Assembly: GCA_964005815.1 (NCBI GenBank)
Contig: CAXFSR010000043.1
Location: forward strand, 99,307-163,306
Length of the DNA: 64,000 bases
Source of the DNA: an uncultured Nitrospinaceae bacterium
Lineage (GTDB): Bacteria > UBA8248
Reading direction: 5' to 3'
Positions within the stretch are counted from its first letter, which is position 1. Each line of letters opens with the position of its first letter. This document shows positions 4,048 to 57,791 of this stretch, piece after piece. Under the pieces are notes generated by a model. The model saw only the letters and a program-made list of their open reading frames with translations. It did not search any database and was not told where the DNA came from. Both the position numbers and the translations under genes were made by a program.

Positions 4048-5757
4048 TCACATTTCGAATGCACCCTTTCCAACTAATTTTTTGGAAAGAGCAACAAGAG
4101 TCAAATTAATACACATCACTATAAAAGTAAGAGCGCCTAATGTTCCCATTTCAGCCTCTTCTACAAACTCGAAGATCAAAATTGAAATAACTTCCAAACC
4201 GCCAGTATAGAGCATTATTGAAGTTGCCATATCACGAAATTTCATACAGAAAATGATAGTCCCTACAGAAAAAAGACCCTTCTTCATAAGCGGCAATGTA
4301 ATATCTTTCATTGTCTTCAACCAACCAGCACCTAAAACACGCGAAGAATGCTCTAACTCTTCATGAATCTGCTTTAGAGAAGATCTGGCAAACATAAAAG
4401 CAATTGGTGTACCTTTCACGAAATATCCAACTAGGAACAACCATAATGTTCCGTATAGGAAAAAAGGCTTGCCCGCAAAAGCAATAACTAACGCTACTCC
4501 TAGAGCAACACCCGGGAAAGACATTCCGATCATAGAGAGCAAAGAAAGAAACTCTCTTCCAGGAACTGTAGTTCTCTCAATTATCCAAGCCATAACGAAA
4601 GTAAATGCAATACATACAAATGCAGCGCCAATGGCTAATATAAAACTGTTCAAGAAAGCTCTAACTACAATGTCTCTGTTAGATGTGAATAGATCAAGAT
4701 AATTATCTAACGTAAGATTGTCAAAAGTAGGAAAATTGCCCCATACTTTTACGATAGATGCCTGAAATAGAGCTAGAGTAGGCATTCCGATACTTACAAA
4801 AACCACAATTAAAGAAAAAGCAGATAAAACATATTTCCATTTCCCTATTTCAATTAATTCTGGCTGCGGGGATTTTCCAGTAACAGTAATAAACTGTCTT
4901 TTTCCTAAATATGAACGTTGAAAAATTAATAATATAGCAGTGACAATTACTATCGGTGTTGCAGCGGTTGCAGCCATATGAAATTGTGGAGGATCGTCAG
5001 AAAATAGATTGTATACCTGAGTAGAAAGAGTATGTATATAAGCAGGATTCCCAACTATTGCCGGAGCTCCAAACACGACAAAGCTTTCTAAGATAACCAG
5101 AATCAAACCAGACAAGATAGCTGGAGTTACAATAGGAAGAGTAACTGTAAGTATAACTCTTAAAGTGCTCGAACCTAAAATTTTTGCAGATTGTTCGTAA
5201 TTAGGATCCATATTATCTAAAGCTGAAACAACAGAAAAAAACATGAAAGGATATACAAACAAGCCCATCACAAAAGCCATACCTCCAAAACTGAAAATAT
5301 TAAACAAAGGTTCTTCAAGACCAAATAATCCCATTGTGATTTGGTTCACAATTCCAGCACGTGGACCTAACAAGACTATCCAACCTATTGCACCTAAAAA
5401 ACTGGGAGTGGCAAATGTGAGAACAACCATAGAACGACATGTTTGCCTAAACGGCATATCCGTTCTAGAAACGCCCCAAGCCATTGGCAAAGCAACAAGA
5501 AGTGAGAAAATAGAAGTTGCAAAGGCAAGTTTTAAGGTGTTCCAAAATGCAGAATATAATTCCGGATCAGTATAAAATGTAAAATAATTCTGTAAAGTCC
5601 ATGCATTAGCAGTGTAATCATATAAACTTCTCTTAAAGAGTATCCCTAGTGGGTACAGAACAAAGAAACCAAGAATTACTGCAGCGGAAACAAAAATCAG
5701 GGTCCTGATTTTTTCGTGTTTTAAGTTTTTCATTGACTTGATAAAATCTGACCGCAC
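4048..5757 (-). CDS. ABC transporter permease, duplicated domain (FbpB/ThiP-like)
   Basis: 569 aa polytopic protein with two EAA-like loops (YEQSAKILGSS, LEHSSRVLGAG); GTG start. Confidence 0.92.
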   Translation of the reverse strand: MRSDFIKSMKNLKHEKIRTLIFVSAAVILGFFVLYPLGILFKRSLYDYTANAWTLQNYFTFYTDPELYSAFWNTLKLAFATSIFSLLVALPMAWGVSRTDMPFRQTCRSMVVLTFATPSFLGAIGWIVLLGPRAGIVNQITMGLFGLEEPLFNIFSFGGMAFVMGLFVYPFMFFSVVSALDNMDPNYEQSAKILGSSTLRVILTVTLPIVTPAILSGLILVILESFVVFGAPAIVGNPAYIHTLSTQVYNLFSDDPPQFHMAATAATPIVIVTAILLIFQRSYLGKRQFITVTGKSPQPELIEIGKWKYVLSAFSLIVVFVSIGMPTLALFQASIVKVWGNFPTFDNLTLDNYLDLFTSNRDIVVRAFLNSFILAIGAAFVCIAFTFVMAWIIERTTVPGREFLSLLSMIGMSFPGVALGVALVIAFAGKPFFLYGTLWLFLVGYFVKGTPIAFMFARSSLKQIHEELEHSSRVLGAGWLKTMKDITLPLMKKGLFSVGTIIFCMKFRDMATSIMLYTGGLEVISILIFEFVEEAEMGTLGALTFIVMCINLTLVALSKKLVGKGAFEM

Positions 5758-5985
5758 GACACCTTATCCTGACACTTTTTTTAGGAACGTTCTTTTTTAA
5801 AAAAAAATGCATGCAATTAATTGTATTGAAAATATGACCTGATTGTAATATCTTCAATTTTTGAAAACAACGATACATTTTATTTTTTATGACAACTAGC
5901 AAAACATTCGTTAATTAGATATGTTTTTTGTTCTCAAAATATATATTCATCACAAAACTGACAACACATATCAAGGTTCAATGGA

Positions 5986-6756
5986 GTGCATATGACCGAA
6001 AAAAAATTAGAAAGTAAAAAAGCAATTGTAACTGGGTCATCTTCTGGTATGGGGGCAGAGATCGCTGCTCGATTTGCAGCCGAAGGTGCTGATGTTTGGG
6101 CAGTTGGAGGAGGAAATCAAGAAGCATTAAATGAAACAATAAATCGATGCACTGCATCAGGAGTTCGTTCAGACGGGAAAGGTTATGATTTCTCTAAGTC
6201 GGAACAGGGCGGTATTGCAGTCAAGGACGGTGTAAAATTTCTTGGAGGTTTGGACATTCTTGTTAATTGTGCAGGAACGAGAAATTTCAAGCCTATTCTT
6301 GAAGTAACCGATGAAGAAATTCACACTATGTTTGAAGTGAACACAAAGTCTTTCTATTTTAGTTCAAGGGAAGCTGTAAAGACAATGTCACAACAAAAGA
6401 GTGGAGATATTCTCATGATGGGTTCCATCTCTGGACATCGAGCAAGACCAGAAAGAACCTTATACTGTGGCACAAAAGCTGCTGTTGAACTTTTAACACA
6501 ATCTTTAGCAATGGAATTAGGACCTCTAGGAATACGTGTGAATTGTTTAGCACCCGGACTTGTTTCAAGTGGTCGAGTAAAAACAAAGATTCAAGAAGAG
6601 AAAGATTATGCTGACAGAAGAATTAAAGGGATCCCTCTTGGACGATTCGGCGATCCTGTGAATATTGCAGCTACCGCTGTGTTTTTAGTTTCTCCAGAAA
6701 ATGAATTCATGAGTGGATCAATCGTTTCAGTAGACGGCGCATCAATGACTGGATAA
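5986..6756 (+). CDS. Short-chain dehydrogenase/reductase (SDR)
   Basis: TGSSSGMG, NCAG and YCGTK catalytic motifs. Confidence 0.92.
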   Translation: MHMTEKKLESKKAIVTGSSSGMGAEIAARFAAEGADVWAVGGGNQEALNETINRCTASGVRSDGKGYDFSKSEQGGIAVKDGVKFLGGLDILVNCAGTRNFKPILEVTDEEIHTMFEVNTKSFYFSSREAVKTMSQQKSGDILMMGSISGHRARPERTLYCGTKAAVELLTQSLAMELGPLGIRVNCLAPGLVSSGRVKTKIQEEKDYADRRIKGIPLGRFGDPVNIAATAVFLVSPENEFMSGSIVSVDGASMTG

Positions 6757-6792
6757 TTTAAAAAATATTTTTATTTCTTATGGGGCTAGATT

Positions 6793-8535
6793 ATGGAAAA
6801 CTACAAAAGTGAGATTCAAGACGGAATGCAAATAGATTGGGATGTTCCAATCGAAATGGACGATGGAGTTGTCTTACGATGCGATGTATATCGTCCCGTT
6901 GGAGAAGGAAAATATCCTGTTGTAATGAGTTATGGCCCCTATGCTAAATGGCTTCACTTAAAAGATGGCTATCCAAATCAATGGAAAGTTTTAACCGAAA
7001 AGTTCCCTGAATCTTTAGCTGGTTCTTCCTGCAAATATATGAATTGGGAACTAGTGGACCCAGAAAGATGGGTTCCCGATGGATACGCAATAGTTCGAGT
7101 TGATTCTAGAGGAGCTGGACGATCACCAGGCTATATGGAGGTTTGGTCACCAAGAGAAACTAAAGATTTTCATGATTGTATAGAGTGGGCAGGAACGCAG
7201 GACTGGAGCAACGGAAAAGTTGGATTAAATGGAATAAGTTATTTTGGAATGAATCAATGGTTTGTGGCTTCTACACAACCATCACACCTAGCCGCTATAT
7301 GCGTTTGGGAAGGTGCGGCGGATCTTTATCGTGATTTAAGTCACCACGGCGGCATACTCTGTCTCTTCGCAAATACTTGGTATACAGACACGGTTATGCT
7401 GAGACAGCATGGAAAAGGAAATCGAGACTGGAGAAGCAGGATTAACGGTGAATGGGTTTCTGGTCCTGATACTCTTCCAGAAGAGACATTAGCTGGTAAT
7501 CGAACAAATTTTGGTCAAGATTTATTAGATCACCCTTTGATCGACGATTATTGGAAAGAACGTATGCCAGATTATTCTAAAATCAATGTTCCTCTTTTAT
7601 CCGCAGGAAATTGGGGTGGAGTTGGACTCCATCCTAGAGGCAACTTTGAAGGATATCTTGAGTCTGCATCTGATCAAAAATGGCTTGAAGTTCATGGGTT
7701 AGATCATTTCACTCACTTCTATACCGATTACGGAGTAAACTTACAGAAAAAATTCTTTGGACATTTCCTTAAAGAAGAAAAAACAGGATGGAATGAGCAA
7801 CCAAAGGTTTCTCTTCACATTAGACATCCTGGCGAAAAATTTATTATTAGATCAGAAAACGAATGGCCCTTAGAAAGAACAGAATGGACTAAATATTACT
7901 TAAAAAGTTCAAATACCACACTTTCAGTAGGACAAGCAGAAGAGGAATCTGAGCTAGAATATGAAGCTTTAGGAGATGGCCTGACGTTCATGACAGATGT
8001 ACTTCAAGAGGATACTGAAATTACAGGACCCGTAGCAAGCAAATTATTTATATCTTCAGAGACAGAGGATGCAGATCTTTTTCTTATCCTAAGAATCTTT
8101 ACAGCGGATATGAAAGAAATTACTTTTCAAGGTTCAAATGATCCTAACACTCCAGTTGGTATGGGTTGGTTAAGAGCATCTCACAGAAAATTAGATACTG
8201 AGAAAAGCGAGATCTATCGTCCTTACCACACTCACGATGAAAAACAGTTACTCACTCCAGGAGACATCTACGAACTGGATATAGAAATATGGCCAACTTC
8301 TATTGTAGTTCCAAAAGGACACAGAGTAGGCTTAAGTGTAAGAGGAAGAGACTATGTACACCCTGGTTTTGAGCAACCAGAAATGCCTGTCTCTGGAAGA
8401 ATTTACTCTGGAGTAGGACCATTCAAACATGACAATAAAGTGGATAGACCGGCCGAGATATTCGGGAAAAAAGTAAAGATTCATACTGGTCCGAATCACC
8501 CTTCGTACATTTTACTACCGATCATTCCAAACTAA
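6793..8535 (+). CDS. CocE/NonD family hydrolase (peptidase S15-like)
   Basis: GISYFG nucleophile elbow, DSRGAGRSPG, W(A)GTQDWSNGKVG, C-terminal jelly-roll with GWLRASHR. Confidence 0.92.
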   Translation: MENYKSEIQDGMQIDWDVPIEMDDGVVLRCDVYRPVGEGKYPVVMSYGPYAKWLHLKDGYPNQWKVLTEKFPESLAGSSCKYMNWELVDPERWVPDGYAIVRVDSRGAGRSPGYMEVWSPRETKDFHDCIEWAGTQDWSNGKVGLNGISYFGMNQWFVASTQPSHLAAICVWEGAADLYRDLSHHGGILCLFANTWYTDTVMLRQHGKGNRDWRSRINGEWVSGPDTLPEETLAGNRTNFGQDLLDHPLIDDYWKERMPDYSKINVPLLSAGNWGGVGLHPRGNFEGYLESASDQKWLEVHGLDHFTHFYTDYGVNLQKKFFGHFLKEEKTGWNEQPKVSLHIRHPGEKFIIRSENEWPLERTEWTKYYLKSSNTTLSVGQAEEESELEYEALGDGLTFMTDVLQEDTEITGPVASKLFISSETEDADLFLILRIFTADMKEITFQGSNDPNTPVGMGWLRASHRKLDTEKSEIYRPYHTHDEKQLLTPGDIYELDIEIWPTSIVVPKGHRVGLSVRGRDYVHPGFEQPEMPVSGRIYSGVGPFKHDNKVDRPAEIFGKKVKIHTGPNHPSYILLPIIPN

Positions 8536-45039: not shown

Positions 45040-46008
45040 ATGGCTAAATACAACAAATCTGATGCGCGATCTTACTGTAAAGAAAATATGAAAGGTATTT
45101 GGGCGGCGATACCCTATCCTTTCGACAAAAACGATAATATAGACGAGGATGCATATCGGAAAGATATAAGACATTATATTGACAATCTAAATATAAAAGG
45201 ATTTTTCGTTGGGGGCATGATCGGGGAATTCTGGTGTATGACTAAGGAAGAAAGATTAAGAGGACAAGAGATTTCATGCGACGAGGCCGGTGATGTTCCA
45301 GTAATTGCCCACACAGGTCATACCTCAGCAAAAGAAGCATTAGAATTAACTGAAGCCGCAGAAAAAGCAGGGGCAACATATGCTATTCTGGCCAACCCTT
45401 ACTTAGGCGCACAGGGACATCCAGATCGAGTGAAAGCATTTTTCAAATACCTATGCGATGGCAGCGATTTAGGTATCTCTTTGTTTAATACTGGCGCAAC
45501 TGGTTATTCTCTTAGTCCAGAACTTATAAGAGAACTTGTTGAAGAAAATGAAACTATTTGCTGTATCAAAAACGCCCAACCTAAATATCATTGCGACGAA
45601 GTAAGAAAAGCCGTTGGAGAAGATATTGTGGTAAGTGACCCGATGGAAACACAATGGTTTTTCAATCGTGCCTATCATAAACAACAAACATTTATGAGTG
45701 GTCCAGATCCATTCCTTTATCAAAGAAAAGATGACCTTAAAATGGAAAAATACACAAATTTGATAGATGAAGGCAATTTGGAAGAAGCCTGGACTGTGAG
45801 AGATGCGATGAACTCCATAAGAGACGTAAGTGAAAAATGGATTTGGGGACCATGGTCTCGTGGAGCTTTTCCAATTCCTGCTCTTAAGACTTGGATGCAA
45901 TTAATGGGGTTAAGTGGTGGTCCTTCACGACCCCCAATGATTCCTTTAACATCAGACGAAAAAAAAGAGCTTGAAACTGACCTTCGTCATGTTGGTCTTA
46001 TAGACTAA
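45040..46008 (+). CDS. Dihydrodipicolinate synthase-fold class I aldolase/dehydratase
   Basis: GIWAA...PF, GGMIGEF, Schiff-base Lys in CIKN, LMGLSGG..RPP. Confidence 0.85.
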   Translation: MAKYNKSDARSYCKENMKGIWAAIPYPFDKNDNIDEDAYRKDIRHYIDNLNIKGFFVGGMIGEFWCMTKEERLRGQEISCDEAGDVPVIAHTGHTSAKEALELTEAAEKAGATYAILANPYLGAQGHPDRVKAFFKYLCDGSDLGISLFNTGATGYSLSPELIRELVEENETICCIKNAQPKYHCDEVRKAVGEDIVVSDPMETQWFFNRAYHKQQTFMSGPDPFLYQRKDDLKMEKYTNLIDEGNLEEAWTVRDAMNSIRDVSEKWIWGPWSRGAFPIPALKTWMQLMGLSGGPSRPPMIPLTSDEKKELETDLRHVGLID

Positions 46009-46058
46009 TTTCAATCCAAAGATTCTTAACTTTCGGTCCGACATGGAAGAAAACGTAA

Positions 46059-46682
46059 ATGGGTAATTTTAAAGAATTTGACCCAAGTCAAATAGAGCGA
46101 CGAGAGATATACAGAATTTTAACTGGGTCAATAGTTCCTAGACCTATTGGATGGGCTTCAACGATAAGCAAAGATGGAATTTCGAACATAGCTCCTTTTA
46201 GTTTTTTCACATGCGTTTGTGTTGCTCCCCCAATGATTTCTCTTACAATCGCAAGAAATCCTGACGGTTCTAAAAAACATACTCTAATTAATGCTGAGGA
46301 AACAGGAGATTTCTGTTTTAATCTTGTTTCTGAAAACCTCTGGGAAAAAATGGTAGATACAGCAAATGGTTATGAAGAGGGAATTTCTGAATTCTCCGAA
46401 GTAGGAATTGAATCAATTCCCTCCATCAAAGTAGATTCCCCTAGAGTCAAACAATCTCCAATCCACTTTGAATGTAAAACACATAAGGTAATAGAACTCG
46501 GACCAAACAAACATCCCCTTTTAATTGGTGAAGTTGTTTATTTTCATGTTTCCGAAGAAGTCCTTAAAGGAAAATATATAGATATGGAAAAACTGAAACC
46601 AGTGGGCAGACTAAATGGGTTTTTGCAGTGCAGTTTAGGAGAGTTTCTAGAACGAAGTTTCCAAGATGGGCAAAAAAGATAA
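46059..46682 (+). CDS. Flavin reductase family protein (DIM6/NTAB)
   Basis: IVPRPIGW.ST, NIAPFSFF, K.TL.N..ETG.F, ECK, GRL.G. Confidence 0.9.
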   Translation: MGNFKEFDPSQIERREIYRILTGSIVPRPIGWASTISKDGISNIAPFSFFTCVCVAPPMISLTIARNPDGSKKHTLINAEETGDFCFNLVSENLWEKMVDTANGYEEGISEFSEVGIESIPSIKVDSPRVKQSPIHFECKTHKVIELGPNKHPLLIGEVVYFHVSEEVLKGKYIDMEKLKPVGRLNGFLQCSLGEFLERSFQDGQKR

Positions 46683-46719
46683 TTCACAACCACATCTAAA
46701 TACCTATGAAAGGAATTCT

Positions 46720-47748
46720 ATGAAAGCTATGGTTCTCCATGAACCGGGGAAGCCTTTTGAACTTGAAGATAGAGCTATTCCTCGTGCAGAAAATAATGAA
46801 GCGGTTGCAAAAGTTTTGGCATGCGGTTCTGGTCTAACGATACAACACACCGTTGCAGGAAGAATCCAATCAAATTTTCCAATTGTCATTGGACACGAAA
46901 TAACTGCGGAAATTACAGAAATTGGACTCGGAGTTGACAATTTAAAAGTTGGTGACCCGGTAACTGCTTTTTATTATTTAACTTGCGGAGACTGCAAATG
47001 GTGCAGAATAAATAGAGAGACTCTTTGCGATTCTCAAGGTCAGGTTGGACGACATATAGATGGTGGTTACGCAGAATACATAAAACTTCCTGCAAGAAAT
47101 TTTATCAAATTACCTAAAAATCTCGATTACATAAAAAATCCAGCTGAAATAGGTGTAATTACAGATGCTATAGCTACGCCATATAAAGTTATTCGACATG
47201 CACAAATATTACCGATGGAAAATGTTGCCATTATTGGCGCAGGCGGAGGCCTTGGAGTACATATGGTAATGGTTACTTTATGGGCAGGCGCAATTGTAAC
47301 TGCAGTAGATATTTCTTCAGATAAATTAAAAAAATGTGACGAACTTGGTGCGCATTTCTTAATCAACCCAAATGAAGTGAATCTTTATGAATCACTTATG
47401 GATTCCTCAAATGGGAAAGGAATGGATGTGATCGTTGATTATGCATGTACAAGTTCTACTATCGAATCCGGAATACAATCTCTCGGCAAAGGAGGAAGAT
47501 TTCTTCCTATGGCAGGAACATCCTCCGCAACCTTTGAATTTAATCCAAAAGAGATGTTAAAAGACGAAAGAAAAATAATGGGAAGTCGATACTGTACCAA
47601 ACAAGATGTCATTGACTCTCTTGAATTAGTTGCAAGAGGAGAAGTGTGGCCTATAGTCACAGAAAAGTATTCTTTAGAAGATGCAGACAAGGTTCATGAT
47701 AGACTTGAGAAAGGATTAGTCACAGGAAGAGCAGCAATAGTTATTTAA
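46720..47748 (+). CDS. Medium-chain (Zn-type) alcohol dehydrogenase
   Basis: MKAMVL start at 46720, GHE, CGDCKWC..C, GAGGGLG, GRAAIV. Confidence 0.88.
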   Translation: MKAMVLHEPGKPFELEDRAIPRAENNEAVAKVLACGSGLTIQHTVAGRIQSNFPIVIGHEITAEITEIGLGVDNLKVGDPVTAFYYLTCGDCKWCRINRETLCDSQGQVGRHIDGGYAEYIKLPARNFIKLPKNLDYIKNPAEIGVITDAIATPYKVIRHAQILPMENVAIIGAGGGLGVHMVMVTLWAGAIVTAVDISSDKLKKCDELGAHFLINPNEVNLYESLMDSSNGKGMDVIVDYACTSSTIESGIQSLGKGGRFLPMAGTSSATFEFNPKEMLKDERKIMGSRYCTKQDVIDSLELVARGEVWPIVTEKYSLEDADKVHDRLEKGLVTGRAAIVI

Positions 47749-47774: not shown

Positions 47775-47803
47775 TTGACGCAATTTTATTCGAATCCTAT
47801 ACT
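47775..47803 (+). promoter_or_regulatory. Sigma70 promoter of the Rieske/cytochrome b operon
   Basis: TTGACG-17 nt-TATACT, about 90 nt upstream of ATG 47896. Confidence 0.75.
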
Positions 47804-47895
47804 TTCAACGTTTTAAGTATATATACCGCTCTAATTTAAGTAATCCGGAAACAATAGATTTTGATGCCAGCAAATCCGGAATTTTAAAAGATGGA

Positions 47896-50763
47896 ATGCC
47901 AGCAATAGATATGAACTCTAGAGAATTTAAGCCACCCGAAGAAAAAACAAGTCCTATTCCCTTCTTTATATTGGGCATAATTTTTGTATTAATTACTGCC
48001 TGGACAGTCTGGGATGAAGCATTTACTCGAAGACCTTGGAAAAACTATCAAACTTCTTTCAACCAATACGAGAAAAATAAAGTTCAAAAGAAATTATCTG
48101 AAAAAGAATCTAAATTAAAAGATCCTCTTGCTAAAATAAACTCAAAAATCACTTCGCTTGAAAACAAAATACAAATTAATGAAACATTAAAGAAGCTAAA
48201 AGAGACACTAAAGGAGAAAGAGTTAGTAGCTTTCGAAAAAGTGCAAGATTATGGTTTCGCAAAAGCCGTTTATGACGAAACCTATTTTACATACGAAGAT
48301 GCTCTTCGAAAAGGAAAAGATATATCAGACTTGAAATTAAAGTTGGCTAATGAAGCAAAAAAAATGGGTAGACTTAAACCCATTGCAGAAAAAGCCGAAA
48401 AAGAAAGAGATGATATAAAATCCAAAATAGATTCAATTCTAAATCCACTTAAAAATTTAAAAAAGAAAAAAAGAGAGATAGCCAAAGAGATTTCTGTACT
48501 TCAGCGAAGAATAAGTTCCATAAATTCCAGAAAATATGAAATCAAACAATTAGTTTTAAGGGGTTTTGATAAAAATAATTTTAATGAACCTACTATGAGA
48601 GTAGACAGGTGTCAAAGTTGTCATTTGGCAATAGACCGTAAAGGTTTCGAAAATGCCAAGCAACCTTTCAAAACTCACCCAAACCGTAAATTCTATCTAA
48701 AATCAACACATAACATGAATGAAATTGGCTGCACCTCTTGTCACGGAGGTCAAGGGGCTGCAGTAACTTCGGTAGACAAGGCTCACGGTTTTGTACAGTT
48801 CTGGGAAGACCCTTTACTAAAAGGGAAAGAAACAGAAACTAAATGCAGAAATTGTCATACAGAAGTTTTCAATATTCCTAAGGCACCACACATCTCTCAA
48901 GGAATTTCATTAATTAGAGAATTGGGATGTCATGGATGTCATCTAATACCAGGAACAAAAGATATCAGAATGGTAGGCCCTAACTTATCGAGAATACAAG
49001 AAAAAGTTCAACCTGAATGGTTAGTATCATGGATCAAACGTCCAAAAGATTACAATCCTAGAACCAAGATGCCATTTTATGGTCTCTCTCAAAAAGAATC
49101 TGAAGATATTGCAAGTTACATATGGCATAGTGGCAAAAGAAAAATCAAGAAAGAAGAAGTTGCAGACCTAGGATCTTCCGTTCAAATTGAACAAGGGAAA
49201 AAGCTTTTTGAGTCAGTTGGCTGCTTAAGCTGCCATGTCAGAAGCGAAAATGATGTTTTGTCAAAGAAACCAATAAAAGGTGTTGACGGCAGACCTTTAG
49301 TTCTTACAAATAGAGATTATGCTCCTGCACTTCAAAAAGTATCACAAAAAGTTCAAACTGACTGGTTATATAGATGGTTGAAAAATCCGAAATCCTATTG
49401 GCATGAAACAAAGATGCCTAGTCTAAGACTAACAAAATCTGAATCTAAATCCATAACTTCATACCTACTTAGCCTGACTCCAAAGAAAAGCAAAAGAAAC
49501 TATACCCTTCGAAACGATCCAGCGACCTTAAAACGAGGTAAAGATTTAGTTGCCAAAAATGGATGTTATGGTTGTCATGTAATTCCAGGAACTGAAAAAT
49601 TATCAAAAATTGGTCCTAACCTTTCAAGGTTTGCAGTGAAGAAACCAGTTGAGCTTTCTTATGGAAACGTTCTTGATATACCGCACACTTGGGAAGCATG
49701 GACTTTTTCTAAACTTAAAAATCCAAAGATTTTCCAAACTGAACGTGAACAACTTTTGATGCCTAATTTTGGACTTTCAGATAAAGAAGTAACCCAAATC
49801 AGAACTTATTTACGATCGATGACACCTCACGCGGCTCCACATAATGTTCATCATCATTTAAATAAGAGACAGAAAAAAATAGAATCAGGAAGAAGGATGT
49901 TAGAAAAATATAATTGCCAAGGTTGCCACGTTATCGAAAATTGGGGAGGCAGTATAGTCAAAAGATACAATGACAAGAATAATGCTCCCCCTTACTTAAA
50001 TGGGGAAGGCAATAAAGTCCAACCTGATTGGTTATACGGTTTCTTGAATAATGTTGTCACGCTTCGTCCTTGGCTAAAAATAAGAATGCCAAGTTTTAAA
50101 ATGCCAAAAGAAGACTCTACTAAACTTGTTGAGTATTTTGCTGCAGTTGACAACAAAATGAGACCTTATATCCACTTCGAGTCTAAGTCTACCAAGGAAC
50201 AGTTAAACGAAGGCAAGAACTTATTTAATAAAGCTGAATGTGTTTCATGTCATGGGGAATGGCCACCTCCATCAGGCAAAGAACCACCATCAGCACCGAA
50301 TCTAAACTTAGCCAAGAAAAGACTCCGTCCTGAATGGATAGTATCTTGGTTAAAAGATCCACAAGCAATTATGCCTGGCACAAAAATGCCTACTTTCTGG
50401 CCCGGCGCTGGTATAAGTTCAAATATTATTAAAGGAAAATTTGAAGAAAAAGAAGACGGAAATTGGATTTACATTTTGGAATCAGATAAAGAATCCGACG
50501 TTCCTGAGGAGTTTGCCACTCTCTATATAAAAAATAAAACTATTAAAGTTAAAGTGCTGGAAGTAGATGAGAAAACATTGCGTATTTCTAGCCCCATCAA
50601 AATAGATAGCAAGTTCACAAATATTAAAATAACAAGTCATGGAGAACCTATAGATCCTGAAATATTAGGTGGTGATGCTCTTGAACAGATGAGAGTATTA
50701 AGAGATTATCTAATGATAGAAACTAACCTCACTAAAAGCACAAATGATATGAGGAAAGGATGA
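47896..50763 (+). CDS. Membrane-anchored octaheme cytochrome c subunit of a Rieske/cyt b complex
   Basis: Eight CxxCH motifs (CQSCH, CTSCH, CRNCH, CHGCH, CLSCH, CYGCH, CQGCH, CVSCH); N-terminal TM, coiled coil, and repeated class-I modules ending in MP. Confidence 0.93.
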   Translation: MPAIDMNSREFKPPEEKTSPIPFFILGIIFVLITAWTVWDEAFTRRPWKNYQTSFNQYEKNKVQKKLSEKESKLKDPLAKINSKITSLENKIQINETLKKLKETLKEKELVAFEKVQDYGFAKAVYDETYFTYEDALRKGKDISDLKLKLANEAKKMGRLKPIAEKAEKERDDIKSKIDSILNPLKNLKKKKREIAKEISVLQRRISSINSRKYEIKQLVLRGFDKNNFNEPTMRVDRCQSCHLAIDRKGFENAKQPFKTHPNRKFYLKSTHNMNEIGCTSCHGGQGAAVTSVDKAHGFVQFWEDPLLKGKETETKCRNCHTEVFNIPKAPHISQGISLIRELGCHGCHLIPGTKDIRMVGPNLSRIQEKVQPEWLVSWIKRPKDYNPRTKMPFYGLSQKESEDIASYIWHSGKRKIKKEEVADLGSSVQIEQGKKLFESVGCLSCHVRSENDVLSKKPIKGVDGRPLVLTNRDYAPALQKVSQKVQTDWLYRWLKNPKSYWHETKMPSLRLTKSESKSITSYLLSLTPKKSKRNYTLRNDPATLKRGKDLVAKNGCYGCHVIPGTEKLSKIGPNLSRFAVKKPVELSYGNVLDIPHTWEAWTFSKLKNPKIFQTEREQLLMPNFGLSDKEVTQIRTYLRSMTPHAAPHNVHHHLNKRQKKIESGRRMLEKYNCQGCHVIENWGGSIVKRYNDKNNAPPYLNGEGNKVQPDWLYGFLNNVVTLRPWLKIRMPSFKMPKEDSTKLVEYFAAVDNKMRPYIHFESKSTKEQLNEGKNLFNKAECVSCHGEWPPPSGKEPPSAPNLNLAKKRLRPEWIVSWLKDPQAIMPGTKMPTFWPGAGISSNIIKGKFEEKEDGNWIYILESDKESDVPEEFATLYIKNKTIKVKVLEVDEKTLRISSPIKIDSKFTNIKITSHGEPIDPEILGGDALEQMRVLRDYLMIETNLTKSTNDMRKG

Positions 50764-51314
50764 CCGAAGCTAGAGACAGAAAACAAGTCAAACTGCCAGC
50801 TGAATACGAAGCTGAACAACAACATAAATCTTCTAACATAGACAGAAGAAGATTTATGAATTATACGGGTTGGCTTGGCATCCTTGGAAGTTTAGGAATC
50901 GCTTTATTAGGTTTCTTGCGTTTTTTGTTTCCAAGAGTTCTGTTTGAACCAAGAACGGAATTTAAAGCTGGCAATCCAAACGATTATGCAGTTGGTGCTG
51001 TAGACACAAGATATTTGAATAGTGAGCGCGTATATATTATCAGAGAAGAAGATGGATTTTACGCTTTAAGCGGTGTATGTACCCACCTAGGATGCACCCC
51101 TGCATGGTTAGCTTCTGAAAATAAGTTTAAATGCCCTTGCCATGGTAGCGGATTTAAAAGAAGCGGTGTTAATTTTGAAGGTCCTGCACCAAGACCTTTA
51201 GAAAGACATAAAATAGTCCTTGCGGAAGATGGGCAATTATTAATAGATAAAGGAAAATTATTCAGACAAGAGAAAGATGAATGGAATAAACCTGAAGCTT
51301 TTCTCTATTTATAG
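50760..51314 (+). CDS. Rieske iron-sulfur subunit
   Basis: Tat-like DRRRFM plus TM, CTHLGC, CPCHGS, GPAPRPL. Confidence 0.96.
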   Translation: MTEARDRKQVKLPAEYEAEQQHKSSNIDRRRFMNYTGWLGILGSLGIALLGFLRFLFPRVLFEPRTEFKAGNPNDYAVGAVDTRYLNSERVYIIREEDGFYALSGVCTHLGCTPAWLASENKFKCPCHGSGFKRSGVNFEGPAPRPLERHKIVLAEDGQLLIDKGKLFRQEKDEWNKPEAFLYL

Positions 51315-51369
51315 AAAACAAAAAGTGTTTTTTGCTGACGAATTAAGTCATGCATGGAGGATGCAATAA

Positions 51370-52158
51370 ATGAGAGGTTTAAAGGAAAGATTTAATTTAG
51401 ACAAACTTAAAAGTAATTTAATAGGTTCTCAGGTTTGGAGATCCATGTTTCGACATGGCTACGAAGATACACCGAGAAACAGAGTATTAATGGTTGTAGA
51501 CAATCTCTGGCTCCACCTCCATCCAACAAAAATTCGAAGACACGCAATTAGAATCCGGTTTACATGGTGTATGGGAGGAATTACTTTTCTTCTATTTCTT
51601 TATCTTGTAGTAACAGGTGTTGTTTTAATGTTTTACTATAGACCAGTGGGCGAATATGCTTATGCGGACATCAAATTCCTTGAGTTTGATGCACCTTTTG
51701 GAATGTTTATGCGTAATATGCACAGATGGGCTGCCCACGCAATGGTTATTGCTGTTTGGCTCCATATGTTACGTGTTTTTATGACTGGTTCATATAAACA
51801 ACCTAGAGAATTCAACTGGGTTATCGGGGTTTTACTTTTGACAGTTACGTTACTTCTTAGTTTTACTGGATATTTATTACCATGGGATCAATTAGCTATG
51901 TGGGCTGTAACAGTTGGGACCAATATGGCCAGAGCCACTCCACTTCTCGGTAGTGAGGGACCATTTGCAGAGTTCGTTGGTGTTACTCCTAGGCTTGATG
52001 CGCGTTCTGCACTACTTGGGGGGACTATCGTTGGACCACCCACTTTACTCAGATTCTATGTTTTGCATTGTATAGTCATACCGCTTATAGCATCAATTTT
52101 AATGATGGTGCATTTTTGGAGAATCAGAAAAGATGGTGGAATTTCTGGTCCTTTATAA
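51370..52158 (+). CDS. Cytochrome b, N-terminal half (cyt b6-like)
   Basis: [52 protein letters not shown]. Confidence 0.95.
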
Positions 52159-52186
52159 TAATTTCTTGATTTGAAAGGCACTGAGA

Positions 52187-52972
52187 TTGGCTAAAGAAGA
52201 TAAGGTTATTGGTTCTGCTGAAGACATGCCACAAACTAGCTGGGAAAGGGTTAATGACAAGGTTCATGTTTGGCCCTATTTAACCCGCCTTGAGTTTATG
52301 TGCGCTATTATTATCACCCTAGTTTTGGTCGTCTGGTCAATCTTAATTGATGCACCTTTAGAGGAACCTGCCAACCCATCAGTAACACCTAATCCCTCAA
52401 AAGCTCCTTGGTACTTCCTTGGCCTACAGGAAATGTTAGTTTATTTCGATCCTTGGATGGCAGGTGTTGTGTTACCTACTCTAATTATTATAGGTCTAAT
52501 GGCTATCCCCTATATTGATGTAAATCCGAAGGGTAACGGTTATTATTCCTACAAAGAAAGAAGATTTGCCATACTTACCTTCCTTTTTGGTTTTCTAGTA
52601 CTTTGGGTTTGGTTAGTCATACAGGGAACTTTTATGAGAGGACCAGGATGGAACTTCTTTATGCCATGGGAATATTGGGATTCACACAAAGTTGTGGCTT
52701 TAACTAATGTAGATTTTCCTTATTGGCTTGGGTTTAGAGACTACTGGGTACAAGCTGCTGTTGGAGGATTATCTATCGTAGCACTTTATGCAACAATTCC
52801 AATTTGGTACTTTTTTAGAAGAAACACTGAAAAAATGAAAAACAAAGGGTTGGTAAGATATAATATAGAAGCATTCCTGTTTGTTACTATGATGGGGCTC
52901 GTAATTAAAATGTTGCTTAGAATCTTCTTAAATATTAAATACATAATGGTTACACCTTGGATTAACTTTTAA
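52187..52972 (+). CDS. Cytochrome b C-terminal half / subunit IV (PetD-like)
   Basis: VWPYL, APLEEPANP..TPNPSKAPWYFLGLQE, RGPGWNFF; TTG start. Confidence 0.9.
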   Translation: MAKEDKVIGSAEDMPQTSWERVNDKVHVWPYLTRLEFMCAIIITLVLVVWSILIDAPLEEPANPSVTPNPSKAPWYFLGLQEMLVYFDPWMAGVVLPTLIIIGLMAIPYIDVNPKGNGYYSYKERRFAILTFLFGFLVLWVWLVIQGTFMRGPGWNFFMPWEYWDSHKVVALTNVDFPYWLGFRDYWVQAAVGGLSIVALYATIPIWYFFRRNTEKMKNKGLVRYNIEAFLFVTMMGLVIKMLLRIFLNIKYIMVTPWINF

Positions 52973-52982
52973 GGGATTATAA

Positions 52983-53087
52983 ATGGTTCAAGAAAGAGAT
53001 AAAAAACACCTATGGTGGGATGCTTGTGGGTTTAAAGTGATAATCTTCTTAGCGATTGGTATAGGTACATACTTCTTTTTAGCATAA
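52983..53087 (+). CDS. Putative 34-aa single-TM small subunit at the end of the bc operon
   Basis: Not in track. SD AAGGGA; MVQERDKKHLWWDACGFKVIIFLAIGIGTYFFLA; starts 10 nt after the subunit IV stop. Confidence 0.65.
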   Translation: MVQERDKKHLWWDACGFKVIIFLAIGIGTYFFLA

Positions 53088-53095
53088 AATTCAAA

Positions 53096-53608
53096 TTAAT
53101 TTTCTGGCCAAGTCTGCAACCCTCTTGAAATTAAAATTTCTTTCAACTTATTCACATTGATTAATTCCATAGGCGCACCTTCTGAGTATTTCTGAACTTC
53201 TTCAGAGAAGTATCCAGTAGTTATTAAAATACCTTTTAATGCAGCTTCTGCTCTAACTGTATCAGACAACCCTATTACTCTTATTGAAGAAACATATTCT
53301 CCTTCTGGAACTAAAATGCCATGTACAATATAGTTCCCACCAACTATTTCCATAGGGTTGTTAGCTAAAATATCAATTTCACGACTATTAACCCAATTTG
53401 TTTCTAAAATTTGCATACCTAGATCATCTAATATTTCTCGGATCATTTTTTCAAAAGACTCTGGTGAAATTGACCTAAGAATTTCTATATCTTTATCATC
53501 TCTCATTTCATCTGCAGCTTCTTCCATAGCTACATTAGTAGTTGTTTTTTTAACAAAGAAAATTAATACAAATCCTACAAATAAAGCAAAAACAACAAGT
53601 TCTAGCAT
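53096..53608 (-). CDS. Membrane-anchored Mrr-like (PD-(D/E)xK fold) domain protein
   Basis: N-terminal TM, SPESFEKMI..L...G, IDILA, KGILITTGYFS..., MELIN...L. Confidence 0.72.
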   Translation of the reverse strand: MLELVVFALFVGFVLIFFVKKTTTNVAMEEAADEMRDDKDIEILRSISPESFEKMIREILDDLGMQILETNWVNSREIDILANNPMEIVGGNYIVHGILVPEGEYVSSIRVIGLSDTVRAEAALKGILITTGYFSEEVQKYSEGAPMELINVNKLKEILISRGLQTWPEN

Positions 53609-53677
53609 AAAACGTACCCCTGAATTGCAAAAATTAAAATAAAAAGGGTCAAAGAAAAGTACAGGACAGAAGGGAAA

Positions 53678-53845
53678 CTAACGAATCATACGATCATAGA
53701 CTTCGTTTTTTTTCCCCTGCTCTATTAGTTCATCGTGCTTAAAAGCTTGCGAGAGAGCTAACCAGCAGTAATAGATAACCAAAGGAAGCATAATAGCAAT
53801 TGGGATATTGTCAGGTTTTGTGAGTATAGCAAGAAAGTTTTCCAT
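53678..53845 (-). CDS. 55-aa KPDNIPI membrane peptide, putatively associated with the cyt b complex
   Basis: Not in track. MENFLAILTKPDNIPIAIMLPLVIYYCWLALSQAFKHDELIEQGKKNEVYDRMIR; SD-like AGGGTGG upstream. Confidence 0.75.
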   Translation of the reverse strand: MENFLAILTKPDNIPIAIMLPLVIYYCWLALSQAFKHDELIEQGKKNEVYDRMIR

Positions 53846-54029
53846 TAATAATCCACCCTAAAAATAATATAAAATGCAACTACATTTTGAATGATTTTAA
53901 ACTTTCGATCAACACTGCTAATGAATTGAAAATTTGTTAACAAAAATTCAAAAAATAGTTGATGTATAACACCTGCCTTTGTTAACATAATGAAAGTAAT
54001 GCCCGTAAACGTTTCTAGAGGATTTTCTA

Positions 54030-54509
54030 TTGCCACATTTTATTTTTGATTCTTGCATTGGTTGCGACGTTTGTTTGCCTGTTTGCCCTACAAAAGCAAT
54101 TACAGGAGAGTCGAGGGAAATATACAAAATAGACCCTACCTTATGTATTGATTGTGGAGTATGTGGAAAATATTGTCCTGCAGCCGCTATACAAGATGAC
54201 GCAGGAAATATAATAGAAAATATCAAACATAAAGATATGCCTAAGGCATTTGTCATGGAAGAGAATTGTACCGGTTGTGTATGGTGCGTGGATATTTGTC
54301 CTTTCGATTGCATTATCATGTCTGATTCATCAGTTGAAAGAGATCATAGTCAGGTTGCCGTAGTCGATGAAAGCAAATGTGTAGGTTGCAGGCTATGCGA
54401 AGAAATATGCAATAAAGGAGCAATTATAGTTCCGAAACATTCTGATGAAGCTGAATACATGACTCCATTCATGCATGAATTTGTCACTTCACCTTTAAGA
54501 GCTTATTGA
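54030..54509 (+). CDS. Polyferredoxin with four 4Fe-4S motifs
   Basis: CIGCDVCLPVCP, CIDCGVCGKYCP, CTGCVWCVDICP, CVGCRLCEEIC; TTG start with GAGG SD. Confidence 0.9.
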   Translation: MPHFIFDSCIGCDVCLPVCPTKAITGESREIYKIDPTLCIDCGVCGKYCPAAAIQDDAGNIIENIKHKDMPKAFVMEENCTGCVWCVDICPFDCIIMSDSSVERDHSQVAVVDESKCVGCRLCEEICNKGAIIVPKHSDEAEYMTPFMHEFVTSPLRAY

Positions 54510-54569: not shown

Positions 54570-56789
54570 ATGGAACCAATATTAAAAAATAGGGTACCTG
54601 CCAGAATTCTTGATATTACAGAGATGGTGACTGAATATGCACCAGGATATGAGAAATTTATTAATGAAGCATTTCTTTTCACTGCCAATTTCCATACTGG
54701 CCAGTTTAGGAGTTCTGGACAACCCTATATTTCTCATCCCCTAGAAGTAGGATTAATGTTGGCAGAAATGAAACAAGATCCCGAAACTATTGCTGCAGGG
54801 TTACTCCATGACACCTTAGAAGACACTCGGGCTACAAAAAATGAGATAAATGAAAATTTCGGTGAAATAACTGCAAACCTAGTAGATGGAGTAACAAAAT
54901 TAAATCGGCTAGATATTCCAAATACGAGAACAAGACAAGCAGAGAATTACCGAAAGATGTTAGTCGCAATGTCTAATGATATTAGAGTTATAATAATCAA
55001 GTTAATTGATCGTTTACATAATGCTATGACTCTTGAGTATCTCCCAAATGAAGCCAGAAAAAGAATAGCCCTCGAGACACACGAGGTATATGCACCTCTC
55101 GCAAATCGACTAGGAATTGGTTGGTTAAAAGAAGCTCTTGAAGATATATCATTTAAACATTTATATCCTGAAGAAAATGAAAAAATTGAAACCCTATTAA
55201 AAGAGGGGCTAGAAGATATAGAAACTTATCTTGAAAACGTAAAATTAGAAGTTGAAAAAGAAATGGCAAAAAATAGGATAAATGGCATTTTAAGTAGTCG
55301 ATACAAATTAAACTCTAGTATTTTCAGAAAAATGAAATCTCAAAATCTAGATTTTCATCAGGTATTTGATATATGCGGAATTAGAATTGTCGTCGAGAGT
55401 CCAATGGATTGCTATTCCGTTTTTGGCTTACTTCACACAAAATGGAAACCTATACCTGGGAGATTTCGAGACTATATCGCTCTTCCTAAATCTAATTTAT
55501 ACCAGTCTCTTCACACAACCGTCATTGCGATGAACGGGCAAAGAGTTGAATTTCAAATTCGCACTAAAGAAATGGACCAAGTTGCAAATGAAGGATTAGC
55601 TGCTCATTGGCAATATAAGGAAAATAGGAATTTAGACAAAGATACTTTTGATAAGTTTAAATGGCTAAGACAAATTATTGAAAACATGAGTGATGAAACA
55701 GACCCTGGCAGTCTCCTTGATTCTTTCAAAGTAAACTTATTTGAAGACGAGGTTTTCGTTTTCACACCAAGAGGAGATGTTAAAAGTTTTCCAAAAGGTT
55801 CTAGTGCTTTAGATTTTGCTTTTGCTATACATTCTGAAGTAGGAATACACTGCGTAGGTGCTAAAATCAACGGCCGCGTCGTCCCTATAACAAAAGAGTT
55901 AGAAAACGGAGACGTGATAGAAGTTGTTACAAATGAAAATAGAACTCCAAGTCCTGAGTGGCTACATTCTGTTTTAACTCCAAAAGCAAAACAAGAAATC
56001 AAAAATTGGCTTAGACAGCAACAAAAGTTCCGTTCTACTCTTTTAGGAAGAGAACTCTTAGATCATGATTTAAAAAGAATCGATCACGAATTAAAAACAC
56101 CTATTCAGGATAAAGACCTACTACCTATTACTGAAAAAATGGGATTCAAAACTATAGATGATCTTCTCGCTGCAATAGGCTTTGGCAATTTAATGTCAAA
56201 AGAAGTTATGCAGCACCTACTTCCTGAAAATGTTATAGAAGATTTCGAAAAACGTGAAAATTCAAGAATAAGAAGATTTTTGCGTCGTATAACTAAAAGA
56301 TCCAATACAGGCATTAAGATAAAAGGTCATGATGAGAAACTAATAAGATTTGCGAAGTGTTGCGACCCTATACCGGGAGATCCTGTGACTGGATTTATAA
56401 CACGTGGCAAAGGTATCTCGATTCATGCAAAAGACTGTGAGAATATCAGTGAATTCTTAAACCAAGAAGAACAATTACTAGAGGTAGACTGGGATGTATC
56501 TGAAAGCAAAGAATTACATCCAGTTCCCTTATCTCTTGAAGCAAAAGATGAACCCGGAGTTCTCGCCGAGATTAGTGCTTCTATAGCAAAATGTGATGCA
56601 AACATTGCATGGCTTAGTGCAAAAACCCACAAACAGATTGCAGGCATACAACTAGAGGTGCAGGTTTATGACCTAAAACATCTAAAAAAAGTGACAAAAA
56701 GTATAAGAAAGTTAAGTACAATAAAATCCGTTAATAGGCTACATCCATCTATAGCCAGGAATACAAAATATTACGAAAATGAAACATAA
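54570..56789 (+). CDS. rel: Bifunctional (p)ppGpp synthetase/hydrolase (long RSH)
   Basis: HD domain (HP.EV, LLHDTLED), synthetase (RFRDYIA.PK, YQSLHT, EFQIRT), TGS (DFAFAIHS), CC (AKCCDP) and ACT domains. Confidence 0.95.
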   Translation: MEPILKNRVPARILDITEMVTEYAPGYEKFINEAFLFTANFHTGQFRSSGQPYISHPLEVGLMLAEMKQDPETIAAGLLHDTLEDTRATKNEINENFGEITANLVDGVTKLNRLDIPNTRTRQAENYRKMLVAMSNDIRVIIIKLIDRLHNAMTLEYLPNEARKRIALETHEVYAPLANRLGIGWLKEALEDISFKHLYPEENEKIETLLKEGLEDIETYLENVKLEVEKEMAKNRINGILSSRYKLNSSIFRKMKSQNLDFHQVFDICGIRIVVESPMDCYSVFGLLHTKWKPIPGRFRDYIALPKSNLYQSLHTTVIAMNGQRVEFQIRTKEMDQVANEGLAAHWQYKENRNLDKDTFDKFKWLRQIIENMSDETDPGSLLDSFKVNLFEDEVFVFTPRGDVKSFPKGSSALDFAFAIHSEVGIHCVGAKINGRVVPITKELENGDVIEVVTNENRTPSPEWLHSVLTPKAKQEIKNWLRQQQKFRSTLLGRELLDHDLKRIDHELKTPIQDKDLLPITEKMGFKTIDDLLAAIGFGNLMSKEVMQHLLPENVIEDFEKRENSRIRRFLRRITKRSNTGIKIKGHDEKLIRFAKCCDPIPGDPVTGFITRGKGISIHAKDCENISEFLNQEEQLLEVDWDVSESKELHPVPLSLEAKDEPGVLAEISASIAKCDANIAWLSAKTHKQIAGIQLEVQVYDLKHLKKVTKSIRKLSTIKSVNRLHPSIARNTKYYENET

Positions 56790-56798
56790 TTGAATTTA

Positions 56799-57791
56799 TT
56801 ACGACAACCCTGCTCTGTTACTTTCCTTTACTTGTCTATTCACTAAATTTATTGGCCACTCCCCAGAGAGTACACGCTTAACTTCATTAGGTGCTCCCTT
56901 TTGTAAACCAACCATAGATTCTTCGCTATACCAAGCAGCATGAGGATTAATAATAACATTCTCTCGATTTCTTAGTGGATGGGAATTAGGTAAAGGTTCA
57001 GGGTCGGTCGTGTCTAAAGCACAACCAGCAATTTTTCCATTGTCCAATGCTTTCACCAAAGCATCTGTTTCGATAATTGGACCTCTCGAACAATTTACCA
57101 AATAAACAGAAGATTTCATTAAATCAAAAGCAGAATCATTAACCATACCTCTCGTTTCATCTATGAGTGGGGGATGAACTGAAATATAGTCAGAATCTTT
57201 ATACAATTCTTCTAATTCTACCTTTTTAGCAGGAATATCAAATTGACCATCTTCGACAAATGGGTCACTGAAGAGGATCTTCATTCCAAATGAAACTGCT
57301 CTTTCAGCAACCATTCTTGCAATATTACCAAAACCAATTAGGCCCAGAGTACTACCAGACAAACGAAAAATTGGTTTGCCAGGAGGCACTTCCCATTTTC
57401 CATTTCGTACAGATCTATCATAAAAAGAAACTTTCCTCGCAGTAGAAAGAAGAAGTGCCATAGTATGTTCCGCGACTTCTTCAATACAATACGTTGGATT
57501 ATTAGTAACAATTATCCCACAATCAGTAGCAGCATCAAGATCAATAGTATCCACTCCTATACCATAACGTGCAATTATTTTACAATTTGACATCTTTTCC
57601 ATATGCTCACGAGTTATTGGACCTGCATATGTATTTAATAAAGCCTCACAATCTGAAGCTTCTTCAATAAATTCGTCCGGTGACTTAGTTTGCATAGCTA
57701 TAATTTCACAAATTTCACCTAGAATCTCATTTTCCTGATCAAGATTATCCCAAACATAATCTGTGAGTACTACTTTAGACTTTCCCGACAT
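56799..57791 (-). CDS. D-2-hydroxyacid dehydrogenase (CtBP-like)
   Basis: ARYGIGVD, EEVAEH, GFGNIA, NCSRG, LDTTDPEP, PHAAWYS. Confidence 0.92.
   Translation of the reverse strand: MSGKSKVVLTDYVWDNLDQENEILGEICEIIAMQTKSPDEFIEEASDCEALLNTYAGPITREHMEKMSNCKIIARYGIGVDTIDLDAATDCGIIVTNNPTYCIEEVAEHTMALLLSTARKVSFYDRSVRNGKWEVPPGKPIFRLSGSTLGLIGFGNIARMVAERAVSFGMKILFSDPFVEDGQFDIPAKKVELEELYKDSDYISVHPPLIDETRGMVNDSAFDLMKSSVYLVNCSRGPIIETDALVKALDNGKIAGCALDTTDPEPLPNSHPLRNRENVIINPHAAWYSEESMVGLQKGAPNEVKRVLSGEWPINLVNRQVKESNRAGLS

Follow-up and report, generated by a model that had tools for sequence, protein, structure and literature searches.

One of the closest described relatives of the system treated here comes from Nitrospina gracilis: a bc-like operon that, as Lucker et al. 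(2013; PMC3578206) reported, encodes an iron-sulphur (FeS) subunit and a split cytochrome b next to an 'atypical octaheme cytochrome c'. They said that it is conserved in Kuenenia and Methylomirabilis, and proposed that it has a role in reverse electron transport. Kao and Hunte (2014; PMC4122944) counted APWY among the six major patterns of the quinol-oxidizing (Qo) site, in a clade that spans phyla. The proline in second position offers no side-chain hydrogen bond to the quinol, the Rieske partners range from the Ser-Phe ('Mid+') type to high potential, and APWY was called typical of complexes that run in reverse. Dibrova et al. (2017; PMC5600118) placed the Nitrospinae in subfamily G of the cytochromes b, with a patchy CxGG motif and co-occurring FeS oxidoreductases. 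In Kuenenia, a potential of +335 mV was measured for the Rieske protein Kustd1480, and Kustd1480-1485 were modelled with a five-helix subunit IV and an octaheme cytochrome carrying long helices; an extra heme b, lying between the two monomers of cytochrome b and with His62 as a ligand, is an AlphaFold3 proposal (Hauser et al. 2025; PMC12954380). Here we compare with these systems a locus in a stretch of 64,000 nucleotides (the window, whose numbering is used throughout) from an uncultured Nitrospinaceae bacterium. Its core is of the known type, the octaheme Rieske/b6 complex of the APWY clade, and not a new kind of complex; what is new concerns three small membrane proteins that probably belong to the system, and a polyferredoxin associated with one of them.

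Four genes on the forward strand make up the core: a membrane-anchored octaheme cytochrome c of 955 amino acids (47896-50763), a Rieske 2Fe-2S protein of 184 (50760-51314; Pfam Rieske, E = 8.4e-12), a cytochrome b6-type subunit of 262 (51370-52158; PF00033, 3.7e-42) and a subunit IV-like protein of 261 (52187-52972; PF00032, 5.4e-07). A 34-codon open reading frame (ORF), orf34, follows on the same strand (52983-53087). The stop of the octaheme gene overlaps the start of the Rieske gene and the remaining gaps measure 55, 28 and 10 bases, which fits a single operon from the octaheme gene to orf34. A reading of this DNA made from the letters alone (the sequence-only reading) had listed these genes and a 55-codon membrane peptide gene nearby, orf55, all of which were found in place, and had missed two genes, one for a 170-residue protein (53096-53608, reverse strand) and one for a polyferredoxin (54030-54509, forward strand). 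Its single promoter fared less well. A weak promoter-like site, TTGACG-17-TATACT (47775-47803, forward strand, 10 of 12 consensus positions), does lie 5' of the octaheme gene, yet the region holds 22 promoter-type matches against 23.0 ± 4.9 in shuffled sequences, and since such matches are no commoner than in shuffles, the site is no evidence of a promoter. A terminator scan of the region gave nothing above chance.

The octaheme cytochrome begins with a membrane helix (residues 21-39), continues with a coiled-coil-like region (about 56-247) and carries its CxxCH motifs at residues 239, 279, 317, 345, 443, 557, 674 and 782, three of them close together and five in class-I-like heme domains. The fetched loci contain 75 homologous open frames longer than 600 amino acids with at least five CxxCH motifs; in 69 of these the number is exactly eight and the spacing is the same, and the others are cut by locus ends or frame breaks; a search of the PDB gave a single weak match (E = 0.0068). 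The Rieske protein has a twin-arginine N-terminus, one membrane helix and the motifs CTHLGC and CPCHGSGF, the latter of the Ser-Phe type that, with Ser-Tyr, accompanies APWY at Mid+ to high potential. Its closest solved chain is Kustd1480 itself (9rk3_A, E = 1.3e-42), with an identical CPCHGSGF box. The octaheme partner and the Ser-Phe box were both anticipated by the sequence-only reading. Gene order varies: the octaheme gene lies directly 5' of the Rieske gene only in the genus of the window (G000, G001, G003), lies 3-5 kb past the polyferredoxin gene on the opposite strand in 7 of the 12 other Nitrospinaceae loci, and comes last outside this family, where the order is Rieske, b6, subunit IV, octaheme. 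As a side observation, a stretch of some 70 residues before the last helix (about 865-930; window 50450-50700) is present in the Nitrospinaceae protein; the octaheme homologues of other phyla lack it and their alignments stop at about 835-861.

Among solved structures the cytochrome b best matches the cytochromes b6 of b6f complexes (1q90_B, 4.6e-46). It has four helices, two His pairs and a CxGG motif, as in complexes of the b6f/b6c type. WCMGG aligns residue for residue with YC[IL]GG of solved b6 (1q90_B, 6rqf_I), putting Cys67 at the site of heme cn (also called c_i), as had been claimed for this protein. The heme-ligand pairs are His118/His132, with a spacing of 14 residues, and His233/His248, with one of 15; all four His are unchanged in 23 of 23 aligned relatives, and we take this spacing to be that of the b6 type. 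In a larger alignment 79 of 79 relatives have His123, beside the ligands, Cys67 and His58 are kept by all 12 of its Nitrospinaceae sequences, and 30 of the 39 relatives with Gly for Cys67 also have Asp for His58. An N-terminal extension of 61 residues contains the invariant residues F27, R28, H29, H49 and H51, and His49 is found in 79 of 79 relatives. By a 13-residue offset, taken from Arg253/Lys254 here set against Arg266/Lys267 of Kustd1481 and not from an alignment, His49 may correspond to His62 of Kuenenia, the proposed ligand of the extra heme b.

Subunit IV is closest to PetD among solved proteins (1.8e-08). Its 'skAPWYf' aligns with 'ilPEWYf', so that KAPWYF indeed replaces PEWY in the ef loop, as the sequence-only reading had it; 23 of 23 aligned relatives, drawn from several phyla, have this motif unchanged, and all close relatives carry APWY. 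A Kyte-Doolittle hydropathy scan finds five segments (36-54, 84-102, 127-145, 188-206 and 230-248), hence five helices. The PEWY/PDWY motif and three-helix subunit IV of the b6f/b6c complexes are thus not what is found here. With a Rieske protein, split b6 and subunit IV, and an octaheme cytochrome encoded together, and with five helices in subunit IV, the locus has the features of the octaheme-type operon.

The likeness to the described systems is close. The N. gracilis operon comes from the same family of bacteria and has the same FeS, b6, subunit IV and octaheme set (PMC3578206); the APWY clade and subfamily G share with the complex here APWY, a Ser-Phe Rieske protein, a split b and a partial occurrence of CxGG (PMC4122944, PMC5600118); and the Kuenenia complex shares the CPCHGSGF Rieske box, b6 with heme cN, the five-helix subunit IV and a multiheme cytochrome (PMC12954380). 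The core thus matches the N. gracilis, Kuenenia and Methylomirabilis operons and the APWY clade one to one, and the idea that it is unusual or unexplained is not supported. To our knowledge, the core complex has never been purified. With the b6f complexes (1q90, 6rqf, 1vf5) it has in common the heme-cn cysteine, the His spacing and small single-helix subunits around the core, but it differs from them in APWY, the five-helix subunit IV, the octaheme cytochrome in the place of cytochrome f and the 61-residue extension of b6. No link of orf34 or orf55 to PetG, PetL, PetM or PetN was found in Pfam or NCBIfam, and neither cytochrome f nor a mono- or diheme cytochrome c is the partner. The best NCBIfam models are those of Geobacter ExtP, ExtQ and ExtS (NF040969, NF040970, NF040971; 277.3 bits for b6, 59.9 for subunit IV), whose equivalog cut-offs are not reached (277.3 against 290, 59.9 against 150 and 66.3 against 100).

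The available text on N. gracilis names three proteins and the octaheme cytochrome, with no mention in it of counterparts of orf34, orf55, the Mrr-fold protein or the polyferredoxin (PMC3578206), and 'small subunit' does not occur in the text of PMC12954380 or PMC5600118. We found no description of accessory subunits of such complexes in the literature, supplements not being covered; Table S1 of PMC3578206 may list neighbouring genes.

The gene orf55 (53678-53845, reverse strand) encodes a single-helix protein of 55 residues, TKPDNIPI followed by the helix and by ND..I..GKK..YD.MIR. Homologues were found by tblastn in 65 of 93 loci. Of 79 loci from other phyla (L015-L093), 52 have the match directly 5' of subunit IV and in one open frame with it, and three (L044, L049, L060) have it as a separate gene. 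The fused protein of L016 reads MEHFLAILTKADNIPI-helix-RQARRNDKLI...TWPYLTRNEF; orf55 runs parallel to its first part (MENFLAILTKPDNIPI-helix-SQAFKHDELI) and the subunit IV of the window to its last (VWPYLTRLEF). D12, N13, P15, I16 and D38 of orf55 are invariant in the alignment. A profile search of 1.84 billion representative sequences gave 599 matches at E ≤ 0.001 and 344 at E ≤ 1e-10; among the best 150, 66 end at most five residues past the match, which we class as stand-alone, 71 run on for at least 25, which we class as fused, and 13 fall between. A word-based search gave eight clusters only, the source names looked up for cluster members were all 'hypothetical protein', and orf55 has no match in Pfam or NCBIfam. 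Since orf55 is fused in frame to subunit IV elsewhere, it is, by sequence, the N-terminal helix of that subunit, split off as a gene of its own: a sixth, detachable helix, encoded separately in several lineages. The sequence-only reading had called the complex 'highly fragmented', and orf55 does turn out to be a piece of subunit IV, which could not be known from this DNA by itself. The subunit IV of b6f begins at the membrane's cytoplasmic face; this additional helix (helix 0) should therefore cross the membrane inwards, an orientation in keeping with the charged tail at the C-terminus of orf55. In the stand-alone form this tail includes a conserved cytoplasmic stretch, GKKD.VYDEMIR, that the fused forms lack.

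Between subunit IV and orf55 the window carries the 170-residue gene mentioned above, on the same strand as orf55. Its product combines an N-terminal membrane helix with a cytoplasmic domain of the Mrr type (PF04471, 6.9e-11, with a further match to an 'inactive restriction endonuclease' family). A predicted model (predicted local distance difference test, pLDDT, 80) is most similar in the PDB to the nuclease domains of MspJI and AspBHI, then to RNA polymerase RPB5, which is consistent with the PD-(D/E)xK fold of PF04471. An alignment of 14 sequences shows no conserved Lys in YIVHGIL, and in EIDIL an Asp that varies; YIVHGIL and EIDIL are where we assume the catalytic Asp ... (Glu/Gln)-x-Lys to belong. 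The protein is probably a membrane-anchored, inactive nuclease fold, which we read as a structural or docking domain.

Subunit IV and orf34 are followed, in 10 of 12 Nitrospinaceae loci, by the Mrr-like gene and orf55 in convergent orientation and by the polyferredoxin gene, divergent from orf55; of the two exceptions, L108 (genome G014) lacks the trio within 7 kb and L118 stops at the end of its contig. The Mrr-like gene lies directly 3' of orf55 in all seven distant loci fetched (six from class-level Nitrospinota, and G014). In a second phylum, represented by genome G036, a stand-alone orf55 occurs in 52 of 61 genomes, and 28 of 30 fetched loci have octaheme, orf55 and Mrr-like genes in this order on one strand, the other two having orf55 and the Mrr-like gene only.

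The third small protein, orf34, is a single helix preceded by an invariant RxxKHLWWDACG. It follows subunit IV directly in 12 of 12 Nitrospinaceae loci. A degenerate DNA pattern of its motif, which gave no control hits, was found in 22 of 41 related genomes, a single time in each: the genome of the window, 20 of 24 others of the family and the one genome of a sister family, against none of seven in the next family and none in the remaining related genomes searched. Each match lies on the same strand within 100 bases past the subunit IV gene. In twelve sequences R5 and KHLWWDACG are invariant, and the helix behind them tracks the GC content of the genome. All seven degenerate codons of KHLWWDACG have varied synonymously, with no non-synonymous change, and because the motif varies in this way only, orf34 is judged to be a real gene under purifying selection. 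It has no match in Pfam or NCBIfam. Its motif should face the cytoplasm. The expectation that the small ORFs are real and conserved was thus borne out by the synteny of relatives.

We consider it likely, with a probability of about 0.75, that the locus encodes an octaheme-type Rieske/b6 complex to which orf55, the Mrr-fold protein and orf34 belong. Gene content, motifs, homology, the fusion to subunit IV, synteny and purifying selection are observed, and suggest that the three small proteins sit in the complex. The earlier proposal of a multi-subunit complex keeps its core and its small membrane proteins, which are real and conserved, and loses its unexplained status. RNA evidence comes from metatranscriptome contigs at least 95% alike, in four runs of one study. 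The genes for the octaheme cytochrome, the Rieske protein, b6 and subunit IV are covered (one contig of 1508 bases corresponds to 51346-52850); a 264-base contig, found in two runs of one sample, corresponds to 53617-53877, that is, orf55 with short flanks, and a 300-base contig falls inside the polyferredoxin gene. In X7/X10 no contig covers orf34 or most of the Mrr-like gene.

Several points tell against this assignment. The RNA contigs indicate presence only, and not strand, level or transcript ends, and DNA may have been present in the libraries. An orf55 homologue was absent nearby in 24 of the 79 loci from other phyla, by tblastn and by iterated profile, and all relatives of orf34 fall within a single order-level group. 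The Rieske/cytochrome b operon (the bc operon) of G014, and that of 7 of 7 class-level Nitrospinota, lies on another contig than orf55, or 167 to 712 kb away from it; co-location of the orf55/Mrr pair with the bc operon is therefore not obligatory. Cofactor content also varies: the heme-cn Cys67 is kept in 40 of 79 relatives and replaced by Gly in 39, and the cysteine, which had been taken to mark the clade and is present here, is no mark of the clade as a whole.

If the complex works as its homologues suggest, it would use a Q cycle to couple the quinol pool of the membrane with c hemes in the periplasm. Oxidation of quinol would take place at a Qo site that has no acidic side chain and to which cytochrome b6 and, with its APWY loop, subunit IV contribute. 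The first electron would pass to the high-potential Rieske cluster and on to the membrane-anchored octaheme cytochrome, and the second would cross the membrane through the two b hemes to heme cn at the quinone-reducing site. The cofactors and the direction of this flow we infer from the sequences; in nitrite-oxidizing relatives the same complex is thought to run in reverse. The orf55 and Mrr-like genes would be co-transcribed. It is at the cytoplasmic face that the clade differs, helix 0, the Mrr fold and orf34 all being expected to place their conserved parts there.

The polyferredoxin, a protein of 159 residues with four [4Fe-4S] motifs and 16 Cys invariant in 20 sequences, is a candidate partner only. 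A tentative extension, which we regard as improbable though worth setting out, is that the complex also trades low-potential electrons with it, in the place of the NAD(P) oxidoreductase of anammox bacteria. The FeS flavoprotein gene of that oxidoreductase, in its Kuenenia form, is not found between 47896 and 54509 and is present in the planctomycetal locus L049. Docking would fall to orf55 and the Mrr fold, and the exit route for electrons would be heme bN/cN together with the extra heme b between the monomers. For such an exit on the n side of the membrane, equally doubtful, orf55 and the Mrr fold would hold the polyferredoxin while quinol oxidation, driven by the +300 mV Rieske/octaheme branch, lifts the second electron to ferredoxin level, or the reverse. 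Gene neighbourhood speaks for the idea. The polyferredoxin gene adjoins orf55 in 10 of 12 Nitrospinaceae loci. In 7 of 7 class-level Nitrospinota, and likewise in G014, the two genes are divergent neighbours with fewer than 400 bases between them, and altogether the polyferredoxin gene accompanies orf55 in three different arrangements. In L044 a 40%-identical homologue and orf55 are 10 bases apart on one strand; other homologues lie directly 5' of the Rieske gene (L046, L054) or 1.5 kb 5' of it (L091). In L049 the orf55 homologue stands directly 5' of a 603-residue FeS flavoprotein of the Kuenenia type, the last dicluster domain of which is 33% identical to the second half of the polyferredoxin. 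The invariant His49, as the counterpart by offset of His62, points the same way, and so does the co-occurrence of subfamily G cytochromes b with FeS oxidoreductases (PMC5600118). On the other hand, coupling is argued from neighbourhood, and similarity between 4Fe-4S domains is generic. No polyferredoxin homologue was found at E ≤ 1e-12 in 5 of 5 other-phylum genomes that hold the complex, nor at E ≤ 1e-15 in G036, and the protein is thus no general part of it. In the window and in Nitrospinaceae the polyferredoxin gene is followed by relA/spoT, so that it may simply share a conserved block, and the extra heme b is itself an AlphaFold3 proposal. A structure prediction of b6, subunit IV, orf55 and polyferredoxin together scored 0.00 in two runs with controls that were not folded, and is uninformative in either direction. 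Were the coupling real, it would provide these bacteria with a quinone-based, bifurcating source of reduced ferredoxin for their reductive tricarboxylic acid (TCA) cycle, a small-protein counterpart of the NAD(P)H-forming mechanism proposed for the anammox complexes. In Kuenenia, kustd1482, a small gene of unknown function (PMC9325076), sits where L049 has its orf55 homologue, a likeness by gene position alone. L049 is further peculiar in that about 1.6 kb of short unrelated ORFs (5253-6907 of that locus) separate the flavoprotein from subunit IV and split the operon.

It is also conceivable, though we think it unlikely, that orf55, the Mrr-fold protein and orf34 act in assembly, insertion or regulation, or form a separate membrane module with nothing but ancestry and neighbourhood in common with subunit IV. 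The hundreds of kilobases that may separate the orf55/Mrr pair from the bc operon would be accounted for in this way, the tail of orf55 that is missing in fused forms may mark the gain of a function of its own, and a nuclease-fold domain has no known role in electron transfer. A transient factor would not readily be expected to be fused in frame to subunit IV, however, as orf55 is in 52 of 79 loci. In the second phylum both genes lie within the operon after the octaheme gene in 28 of 30 loci, and orf34 begins a mere 10 bases past subunit IV.

That the complex is a peculiarity of this genome with new Qo chemistry, as the sequence-only reading had it on the strength of an APWY without the acidic residue of PEWY/PDWY, is very improbable: APWY is invariant in 23 of 23 relatives and has been a named Qo pattern since 2014 (PMC4122944), the operon type has been in print since 2013 (PMC3578206), and at least 598 related stretches rule out uniqueness to one genome.

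Membership of the three small proteins in the complex, our preferred reading, has practical consequences. The core is the only complex III of one abundant marine group of bacteria and of many uncultured phyla, and anyone who prepares or models it from the four annotated genes would overlook as many as three membrane proteins. The Mrr-fold partner would be a rare instance of a respiratory operon taking up a nuclease fold, and the pairing of a freed helix with a polyferredoxin offers a testable lead on the supply of reduced ferredoxin in nitrite oxidizers that use the reductive TCA cycle.

The genome of the window (G000; 2.24 Mb, 97% complete) contains a single PF00033 match and one heme-copper oxidase, and the complex is its sole cytochrome b complex; it differs in this from N. 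gracilis, which has a second, unsplit cytochrome b (PMC3578206). Several larger Nitrospinaceae genomes show a second subunit IV-like match in open frames of about 500 amino acids, probably the unsplit cytochrome b mentioned for N. gracilis. A subunit IV match was found in 36 of 41 related genomes, and at least 598 stretches with a subunit IV relative were confirmed in the species collection. Among the matches listed, these stretches are labelled Deltaproteobacteria, Binatia, Bacteroidota/Ignavibacteria, KSB1, Acidobacteriota, Planctomycetota, Methylomirabilota and others, and the best named relative is an 'uncultured Nitrospinaceae bacterium' (79% identity in subunit IV). A molybdoenzyme of the size of nitrite oxidoreductase was not seen in the genome with PF00384 and TIGR03479, which gave five molybdoenzymes, none with the size or name expected; the same search found no nitrite oxidoreductase in complete relatives either, and is therefore uninformative on nitrite oxidation. 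The extra molybdoenzyme matches in the relatives G010 and G014 are formate dehydrogenases. In G014 a NuoF-like protein and a formate dehydrogenase alpha subunit (TIGR01591, 784 bits) are encoded about 9 kb from the bc operon (L126, 547-5412), a pair of which the same searches gave no counterpart in the genus of the window.

A number of Binatia and Deltaproteobacteria loci without orf55 nearby (L015, L018, L020, L023, L024, L031, L032, L033, L036, L037, L040 and L041) carry another conserved ORF of 55-58 residues (MFYLAKILQALG..., apparently two helices) in a gap of about 200 bases between the subunit IV and octaheme genes, a candidate for a different, lineage-specific micro-subunit. The genes on either side of the locus (45040-47748 and 54570-57791) encode a DHDPS-family enzyme, a flavin reductase-like protein, a zinc alcohol dehydrogenase, RelA/SpoT and a D-2-hydroxyacid dehydrogenase; they are ordinary housekeeping or catabolic genes, in line with the earlier impression of a heterotrophic-looking region. 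The three genomes of the genus are small (2.0-2.2 Mb), and the window has a G+C content of about 36%.

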